A stretch of 39,488 nt of DNA, taken from Escherichia phage vB_Eco_ZCEC02. The translations under genes were made by a program, and so were the position numbers. Shown here in pieces: positions 39,188 through 39,415 of the stretch; positions within the stretch are counted from its first letter, which is position 1; every line of letters begins with the position of its first letter. Under the pieces are notes generated by a model, which saw nothing but the letters and a program-made list of their open reading frames with translations, made no database searches and was not told where the DNA came from. Location of the stretch: sequence record PV833354.1. One strand, 5' to 3'.

Positions 39188-39415
39188 ATGAACACAATCA
39201 CTGGCGCCATAACCAAAGGTTTTCGAGCAATTTTCGGTGAAACGCAAGAAGTATGCACCAATCATAAATTCGTACTTTCTTGCGTAGCAGGTGACGAGTT
39301 TGACGGGTTCGATAAACTGGTGGTTTGCGACCATTGCGGACAAGAGGCTATCCAACACTCAAACGGTAAATTTGAATTAATAGACGATAGCCTTACAGAA
39401 GGAGACGGCGAGTAA
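39188..39415 (+). CDS. hypothetical early protein with four Cys (zinc-ribbon-like), 75 aa
   Basis: GAGGGAAG upstream of the ATG; Cys pattern C-x8-C ... C-x2-C (CTNHKFVLSC ... CDHC); preceded by a conserved hairpin element. Confidence 0.55.
   Translation: MNTITGAITKGFRAIFGETQEVCTNHKFVLSCVAGDEFDGFDKLVVCDHCGQEAIQHSNGKFELIDDSLTEGDGE

Follow-up and report, generated by a model that had tools for sequence, protein, structure and literature searches.

An orphan early gene of Escherichia phage vB_Eco_ZCEC02 encodes a conserved acidic protein with a plausible zinc-ribbon-type site and is shared between Kayfunavirus and Kagunavirus

Ocr, gp5.9, gp2, Arn, and Ugi are stoichiometric protein inhibitors of host nucleic-acid enzymes. 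Here, we describe a 75-amino acid (aa) protein of Escherichia phage vB_Eco_ZCEC02 (PV833354.1), whose open reading frame (ORF) at 39188..39415 on the plus strand lies one hairpin from ocr; the whole stretch of 39,488 nucleotides (nt), called the window below, was analyzed. The protein resembles these inhibitors in its early position, small size, and strong negative charge, but is Cys-rich and has no sequence or fold match to any of them, and the phages that naturally carry it are not protected from type I-III restriction. It also recalls LysW and ArgW (PF21344; 3WWL), which are likewise small (54 aa vs 75 aa) and very acidic, with a zinc ribbon (a predicted one in the phage protein) followed by an acidic Gly-Glu tail.

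The map position of the ORF is equivalent to that of T7 genes 0.4-0.7, between gene 0.3 and gene 1, although no homology to these genes was detected by tblastn or HMMER. The T7 0.7 kinase, an occupant of the equivalent zone, is reported to disarm defenses (PMC13645617); a kinase of this type is absent from ZCEC02, in which every ORF between ocr and gene 1 encodes 108 aa or fewer. In Vibrio phage 1.080.O, the 52-aa predicted zinc-ribbon protein Enki counteracts both AbiH and a retron (bioRxiv 10.1101/2024.06.14.598830) and so provides a precedent for the neutralization of defenses by a very small phage protein acting alone. The ZCEC02 protein would share these traits with Enki, but host and phage type differ, and a HMMER search, in which the Enki sequence was not directly compared, detected no homology.

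We predict that the 75-aa protein, of zinc-ribbon type, acts alone to bind or inhibit some host factor, most probably in counter-defense, and we give this reading a probability of roughly 45%. Its gene is early, optional, orphan, and traded among virulent phages of wild E. coli, and the protein acidic, extremely conserved, and probably zinc-stabilized, a profile that matches small stoichiometric inhibitors of host proteins.

The window represents the complete, circularly permuted genome of a Kayfunavirus (K1F-like, T7 group), with an early region 97.8% identical to that of Escherichia phage HC13 and 99% identical to that of LM33_P1, and an RNA polymerase gene (788..3469; PF00940 and PF14700) 97.7% identical to its counterpart in vB_EcoP-101136BS1. 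Positioned between the Ocr gene (38291..38797; PF08684, E 5e-28) and this T7-type RNA polymerase gene, the ORF runs from an ATG start to a TAA stop and encodes a protein of 8.1 kDa with a pI of 4.46 and a net charge of about -9, which comprises a variable amphipathic N-terminal segment of 19 aa, a near-invariant core (residues 20-65), and an acidic tail ending in G-D-G/S-E. The protein is 100% identical to LM33_P1 gp04 (YP_009324478) and matches PHROG 32657 (phrog_32657, unknown function; E 1.7e-53). As the first-pass annotation of this DNA had noted, the ORF is preceded by a strong ribosome-binding site, a Shine-Dalgarno sequence with its GAGG core 6 nt ahead of the ATG; a GAGAGG motif also precedes ocr. 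The features of the gene and of its product are as follows.

39188..39415, plus strand: coding sequence of the 75-aa protein (from the ORF list and protein properties)
39176..39182, plus strand: Shine-Dalgarno sequence GAGAGGG (read from the sequence; kept in the Kagunavirus copies)
39254..39265, plus strand: codons of C23-T-N-H26, proposed first zinc knuckle (CxxH; invariant, with a putative ligand role)
39281..39283, plus strand: codon of C32, also invariant and a possible fifth ligand, which the predicted topology puts at the distal end of strand 1, away from the C47/C50 turn
39293..39316, plus strand: codons of G35-D-E-F-D-G-F-D42, an acidic/aromatic loop and candidate interaction surface (invariant, including in the 57%-identical member P0125)
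39326..39340, plus strand: codons of C47-D-H-C50-G, a zinc knuckle of the canonical CxxCG form (paired by hhalign with the second knuckle of LysW)

Selection was analyzed over the 46-codon core (Q20..I65) by comparing ZCEC02 with 11 further copies, taken from other phages and from metagenomes. In this comparison, synonymous change extends to saturation (pS 0.29-1.0), whereas pN is only 0.01-0.06; relative to phage vB_Eco_1RS, for example, the core carries 27 synonymous and 3 non-synonymous differences. Among copies of the closest subtype, the pN/pS ratio drops from 0.36 over the N-terminal 18 codons to 0.05 over the core, which is thus under very strong purifying selection, and to 0 over the tail. 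This substitution pattern indicates that the conserved object is the protein, with constraint falling on the block formed by the first knuckle, strand β1, the GDEFDGFD loop, strand β2, and the second knuckle, and on the terminal GD[GS]E. Start, stop, and ribosome-binding site are kept in two unrelated phage genera, and the gene occurs in the 56 phage records described below. We conclude that the ORF is a real accessory gene, of the immediate-early class, in a Kayfunavirus. An in-frame deletion was seen in two public contigs (L015 938..1327 and L016 253..642, one filed as E. coli, GCA_022432785.1), the product of which (P0006) joins ~105 N-terminal residues of Ocr to the C-terminal 24 of the 75-aa protein, with the two small intervening ORFs gone; this is probably a Kayfunavirus deletion variant within a bacterial sample.

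Four cysteines had been reported in the protein, arranged as two pairs. The number is correct (C23, C32, C47, and C50), but the pairing is not, in that the sole CxxC knuckle is C47-D-H-C50-G, C23 and C32 are separated by 8 residues, and the knuckle-like partner of C23 is the invariant histidine of the CxxH motif C23-T-N-H26. Twenty residues separate the two knuckles. All subtypes recovered, the most divergent at 57% identity, keep C23, H26, C32, C47, and C50 unchanged, and for C23 and H26 this holds across synonymous TGC/TGT and CAT/CAC changes, whereas H49 and H57 are variable; invariance is not specific to the candidate ligands, since the whole core is nearly invariant. Cysteine makes up 0.82% of the large proteins of the phage, so that four in 75 aa have a binomial probability of 0.0035, and the pattern C-x2-[CH]-x10-30-C-x2-C occurs in 1 of 91 six-frame ORFs of 60-100 aa. 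With two knuckles of the form C-x2-C/H (CxxH and CxxCG), both adjoined by predicted β-strands (28-33, 43-47, and 53-56), the sequence makes a zinc-ribbon-type site plausible, in line with the zinc-ribbon-like character that the first-pass annotation had proposed. Judged by strand order, C23 and H26 (just ahead of β1) would share one end of the sheet with C47 and C50 (in the β2-β3 turn), and C32 would lie at the opposite end, which favors the former four as the metal site; most likely, C23, H26, C47, and C50 bind one zinc ion and C32 is an additional invariant cysteine.

Eukaryotic TFIIB uses a CxxH first knuckle and a CxxC second one, and this C-x2-H...C-x2-C type of zinc ribbon (PF08271), which LysW relatives also match, has the ligand pattern seen in the ORF. 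Unlike the TFIIB ribbon, the ZCEC02 protein has a knuckle spacing of 20 rather than about 15-17, no Pfam match, and no transcription-factor context.

Structure prediction gave a poor AlphaFold2 model of the full-length protein (pLDDT 54.7), for which a Foldseek search of the PDB returned nothing below E 0.8, and a moderate model of the core (pLDDT 70.4) with four β-strands at residues 28-30, 43-47, 53-56, and 62-64. A structure search of BFVD recovered only a member of the same family, with no significant fold match. As one public record independently labels a family member “LysW”, we confirmed the Thermus thermophilus LysW sequence against PDB 3WWL, built an alignment of 21 LysW sequences, and compared it with the ORF family. 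Profile alignment with hhalign spanned KLVVCDHCGQEAI..FELIDDS (K43-S68) with a probability of 62%, a pair E value of 7.8e-5, and a score of 26, which exceeds the scores of all controls (9.9 +/- 2.5 with a maximum of 20 for 300 column shuffles of the query, and 10.6 for the reversed query). The second knuckle and next strand align as ELVVCEDCGAE in LysW and KLVVCDHCGQE in the ORF, and a permissive alignment reaches both C-termini, with 25 residues after the second knuckle in the ORF and 26 in LysW, both proteins ending in G-E. This remote similarity suggests a zinc-ribbon fold and a LysW-like architecture of acidic ribbon and acidic tail for the phage protein.

Membership of the LysW family itself was rejected. 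No match to PF21344 or to its NCBIfam counterpart (TIGR01206) was found at E values up to 10, and E50, D51, W52, G53, and E54 (the EDWGE motif), invariant in the LysW alignment, give way in the ORF family to EGDGE, DGDGE, or EGDSE, so that the two have just a G-x-E/G-E end in common. Genes of the lysX/argX or lysZYJK type are absent from the neighborhood, which consists of ocr, early ORFs, and RNA polymerase in ZCEC02 and of a cro-like helix-turn-helix (HTH) gene and replication genes in Kagunavirus. The ORF further differs from LysW in its CxxH first knuckle, longer inter-knuckle loop, extra 19-aa N-terminal segment, and virulent coliphage host. LysW works by docking its acidic domain onto basic enzyme surfaces, and, by analogy, docking of this type is a plausible model for partner binding by the 75-aa protein.

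The gene had also been assigned to a host-transcribed early region, and its surroundings agree with this by analogy with T7. Allowing up to 3 mismatches, the phage-promoter consensus TAACTATCACTATAGGA has 10 matches across the genome vs 0.09 expected, and none of the 10 falls between 36941, near the right genome end, and 699. When infection begins, the ORF would therefore be accessible to host RNA polymerase alone, which, if T7 is a guide, places it in the class-I zone. A scan for σ70 promoters, though not above chance overall, picked out a single good candidate (TTGACA-18-TAGTAT, 38058..38087) ahead of ocr. A perfect match to the TAACTATCACTATAGGA consensus was observed at 699..715, ~70 nt ahead of the gene for the phage RNA polymerase, and would let this gene be transcribed by its own product; we know of no phage promoter ahead of gene 1 in T7. 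Short CCTACAGT/CCTACGGT-like repeats form a dense array at 37420..37800, near the presumed physical ends of the genome, and resemble the short repeat arrays beside the T7 terminal repeats. The ORF is flanked by two hairpins and occupies an insert with recognizable boundaries.

39120..39168, plus strand: upstream RNase III-type hairpin, with a lower stem, an internal loop, and a 10-bp upper stem (RNA fold -19.3 kcal/mol)
39475..39488 and 1..41, plus strand, across the permutation point: downstream RNase III-type hairpin (RNA fold -19.8 kcal/mol)
39155..39473, plus strand: gene cassette insert of ~320 bp (from blastn break points against empty-site relatives and junction alignment)
39427..39442, plus strand: orphan ribosome-binding site AGGAGAGAACCAAATC (from DNA alignment; the Kagunavirus equivalent AGGAGAAACAAATG starts the next gene, the ATG of which is ATC here)

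Lower stem, internal loop, and upper stem are the architecture of the T7 early RNase III sites, and both hairpins comprise these elements with upper stems of 9-10 bp. A third copy stands before ocr (38202..38260) and has the motif CCTGACTGATAGTCAyTAACA in common with the upstream hairpin; the downstream hairpin is the single one found in relatives lacking the ORF. An Rfam scan of the whole window returned no family, indicating that the hairpins are not a curated RNA family; their cleavage by RNase III is predicted from the T7 precedent.

The ORF family is an orphan. A HMMER search of its profile against 1.84 billion representatives recovered a single 50% cluster, the family itself; Pfam, NCBIfam, PADLOC, and PDB sequences gave no match at E values up to 10; and a word-indexed profile search with the same limit added one divergent member (P0125) and no outside family. 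Searching 50,697 phage records by tblastn (E up to 10), we found the family in 56 and nothing beyond it. These records comprise 31 of Kayfunavirus size and 25 of Kagunavirus (Guernseyvirinae siphoviruses, e.g., Golestan, K1ind1, and Bas70/73/75). Set against ~175 records with an RNA polymerase gene of at least 90% identity and ~117 with the conserved Kagunavirus cro-like HTH gene, the ORF is optional in both genera, being present in about one-sixth of Kayfunavirus and one-fifth of Kagunavirus records. Phages with names like those in a published collection used for an Escherichia phage-host interaction matrix include both carriers (LM33_P1, LI10P1, AN17P1, and AN24P4) and phages that lack the ORF (CLBP1 and T147P5). 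No copy was found by blastn in 5,426 complete E. coli genomes, nor in one genome for each of 185,579 species. The only plasmid match, of 92% identity, lies in CP088689.1 (4604..4828), a 44,086-bp record of Kagunavirus size filed as a non-mobilizable E. coli plasmid of a blood isolate, which is probably a phage genome misfiled as a plasmid.

Two subtypes, with the tails DDSLTEGDGE and EEGDGDGE, each occur in both genera, and a third is found in short metagenomic contigs beside other genes. The cassette at 39155..39473 is absent from K1F and EcoIv41_Bia, which have a single hairpin at the site; in K1F nomenclature the ORF would fall between genes 0.35 and 0.36. In vB_Eco_1RS, which belongs to another Kayfunavirus lineage, a different subtype occupies another slot, between homologs of ORFs 167..364 and 364..690, and in Kagunavirus the ORF heads the early operon, with the cro-like gene in divergent orientation. 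The ORF is thus found at several insertion points, and the genes downstream of it are unrelated between contexts; because its neighbors differ in every context, the gene appears to work alone. DNA homology between ZCEC02 and Kagunavirus extends from the ribosome-binding site to ~28 nt past the stop codon, and the orphan ribosome-binding site of the next Kagunavirus gene survives at 39427..39442, which suggests transfer from siphovirus to podovirus, the Kayfunavirus copy deriving from a Kagunavirus-like donor. Both genera depend on O-antigen or capsule (PMC11990801) and are often isolated on the same strains (e.g., 22664BS1/22664BS2 and SHAK7854/SHAK7858), and these common hosts explain the exchange of the ORF between them.

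Two neighbors were considered as functional partners and rejected. The downstream protein of Golestan is acidic, but is not Ocr, and downstream genes are unrelated across contexts; the cro-like HTH neighbor, considered as an Aca-type partner, is a near-core Kagunavirus gene (~117 records) and hence not specific to the ORF. Comparison with Bas70 revealed that Bas71 lacks both the ORF and the adjacent cro-like HTH regulator, which is present in most Kagunavirus, indicating that the early control region of this genus is itself variable. In K1ind1-type contexts (L004 4194..4709, L011 4197..4538, and L012 1091..1537), the stop codon of the ORF overlaps the start of the next gene, which encodes an uncharacterized protein of 113-171 aa with a coiled-coil N-terminus and a Cys-rich C-terminus containing several CxxC motifs.

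Some other early ORFs and related records were observed in passing. A 61-aa ORF (38794..38979) overlaps the ocr stop codon (ATGA), is present in HC13 and missing from LM33_P1 and most relatives, and has no match in PHROG or Pfam; it is another optional early gene. A 50-aa basic ORF (38972..39124; phrog_5058, a homolog of K1F gp0.35) is unannotated in LM33_P1 despite conserved DNA there. Downstream of the second hairpin, ORF 44..364 has predicted hydrophobic segments and a weak, sub-threshold Ninjurin match (E 0.002); its conservation in K1F (gp0.37) and 1RS is limited to the C-terminal 65 aa, a pattern that may reflect an incorrectly annotated start or a mosaic N-terminus. Among the related records (PV615263.1 and PV615262.1), Acinetobacter phage vB_Aba_01KA (39,611 bp) has nearly the same genome as Escherichia phage vB_Eco_1RS (39,612 bp). 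A match to the early region of Kayfunavirus was likewise seen in Staphylococcus phage MBBL139, and the host labels in these records look doubtful.

In the mechanism that we propose, host RNA polymerase would transcribe the ORF within the class-I transcript, and the hairpins on both sides would probably release it as a small mRNA of its own. The product would be an 8-kDa, strongly acidic β-protein with a fold held by zinc at C23/H26/C47/C50 which, acting alone, would bind one E. coli protein stoichiometrically and then block or redirect it, using as its binding surface the invariant knuckle, strand β1, and acidic-aromatic loop together with the acidic tail. Its target would most likely be a defense or nucleic-acid-handling factor of wild, glycan-coated E. 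coli, and not a restriction-modification enzyme or Old.

The two latter targets are disfavored by published plating data for the BASEL Kagunavirus phages, which are non-isogenic and comprise three carriers (Bas70, 73, and 75) and four non-carriers (Bas71, 72, 74, and 76; Bas71 was confirmed to be present in the searched database and to lack the gene). Type I, II, and III systems restrict the two groups equally strongly, and sensitivity to Old does not track gene carriage, as carrier Bas73 forms no plaques, carriers Bas70 and Bas75 have values of ~0.2-1.4 and 0.01-0.06, and non-carriers range over 0.003-1.2 (PMC11990801 S1 Data). An Ocr-like anti-restriction, anti-Old, or Old-trigger role was rejected on these efficiencies of plating, with the reservation that the phages are non-isogenic, and we regard such a role of the protein as unlikely. 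The ORF also has no match to the Ocr family or fold (PF08684), the true ocr being its neighbor at 38291..38797. The suggestion that the protein is a new inhibitor fits its early, accessory, acidic, orphan, and exchanged character, and its most obvious version, an Ocr-like one, is disfavored by the plating data; we consider it a reasonable prediction. Literature searches for the protein accession, PHROG number, and peptide string found none of them in the papers covered, and the protein is not among the 200 genes of the accessory-gene screen of Silas et al.

Several observations weigh against a zinc-ribbon-type, counter-defense inhibitor. The first knuckle is CxxH, not CxxC, and the fifth invariant cysteine makes the ligand set ambiguous. 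Public assemblies hold the deletion variant described above, in which two-thirds of the gene is lost. RexAB, PifA, Fun/Z, and Tin affect neither carriers nor non-carriers (PMC11990801 S1 Data), and, with no difference in the BASEL data tracking the gene, no phenotype is attached to it. Among the alternatives, a host-takeover factor would be toxic on its own and inhibit an essential housekeeping target in division, cytoskeleton, transcription, or replication, as do T7 gp0.4 (FtsZ), gp0.6 (MreB), and gp2 (RNA polymerase). The genomic zone is that of T7 0.4-0.7, the protein is small, early, and acidic, and extreme conservation of the core would be expected if the target surface were itself invariant. 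However, close relatives manage without the gene, which is present in only one-sixth to one-fifth of the genomes of each genus, and in the phage collection tblastn (E up to 10) recovered the ORF family alone and no T7 early protein; we think this role unlikely. A factor for competition with co-infecting phages, satellites, or prophage exclusion systems, as opposed to chromosomal defense, would suit a gene that behaves as an autonomous cassette and circulates only among virulent, host-sharing phages (Kayfunavirus and Kagunavirus), often from the same strain. The effect of K-12 cryptic prophages on Bas74-76, though, is attributed to tailspike type and does not track gene carriage, and competition seems to us improbable.

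A nucleic-acid-binding regulator that tunes early phage or host expression appears very improbable. Zinc ribbons are common nucleic-acid-binding modules and the Kagunavirus copy adjoins a cro-like regulator at the early promoter region, but the net charge of about -9, acidic loop, and acidic tail make direct nucleic-acid binding unlikely, and the same core is kept although the promoter systems of its carriers differ completely (phage RNA polymerase vs host polymerase only). RimK is the E. coli homolog of LysX, and a LysW-like decoy or substrate of this host ATP-grasp ligase, either glutamylated by RimK or titrating it, would account for the LysW-parallel architecture, including the aligned LVVCxxCGxE and the near-equal distances to a terminal G-E, and for the resemblance of the tail DDSLTEGD[GS]E to the RimK-modified C-terminus of E. 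coli bS6 (ADDAEAGDSEE). Yet the EDWGE motif is missing, no Pfam or NCBIfam LysW match exists, the phage lacks an ATP-grasp gene, the likeness of the two tails is of low complexity and one residue out of register, and a search of the literature gave nothing that connects RimK with phage infection; we regard this idea as far-fetched. Finally, a chance ORF or decaying remnant might be suspected from the short length, the lack of a database family, and the truncated fusion variant, but is refuted by the excess of synonymous over non-synonymous differences (27 vs 3 over 46 codons) and by the start, stop, and ribosome-binding site kept in two genera, leaving it a negligible probability.

A broader interpretation of the predicted inhibitor is that it represents a new family of zinc-dependent counter-defense (or host-rewiring) factors specific to virulent phages that infect wild E. 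coli with an O-antigen or capsule. Such factors would pass repeatedly from podoviruses to siphoviruses or back and be directed at a target outside current anti-defense catalogs. We offer this interpretation tentatively and consider it doubtful, and a more exotic sub-case of it would be a mimic of LysW and the bS6 tail that RimK, the ATP-grasp ligase of the host, engages.

The gene is a new orphan among the small accessory early phage proteins, a known kind. The near-unchanged protein despite saturated DNA, together with its independent capture by two unrelated lineages, makes a host-dependent advantage very likely. By making the commonest guess, anti-restriction, unlikely, the plating data narrow the experiments needed. 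Phages of Kayfunavirus and Kagunavirus are in wide use as candidates for therapy of infections with extra-intestinal pathogenic E. coli (e.g., LM33_P1, K1-specific phages, and the HC, PM, and SHAK isolates), and identification of the target would add a new small inhibitor and could help to explain strain-level differences in host range.

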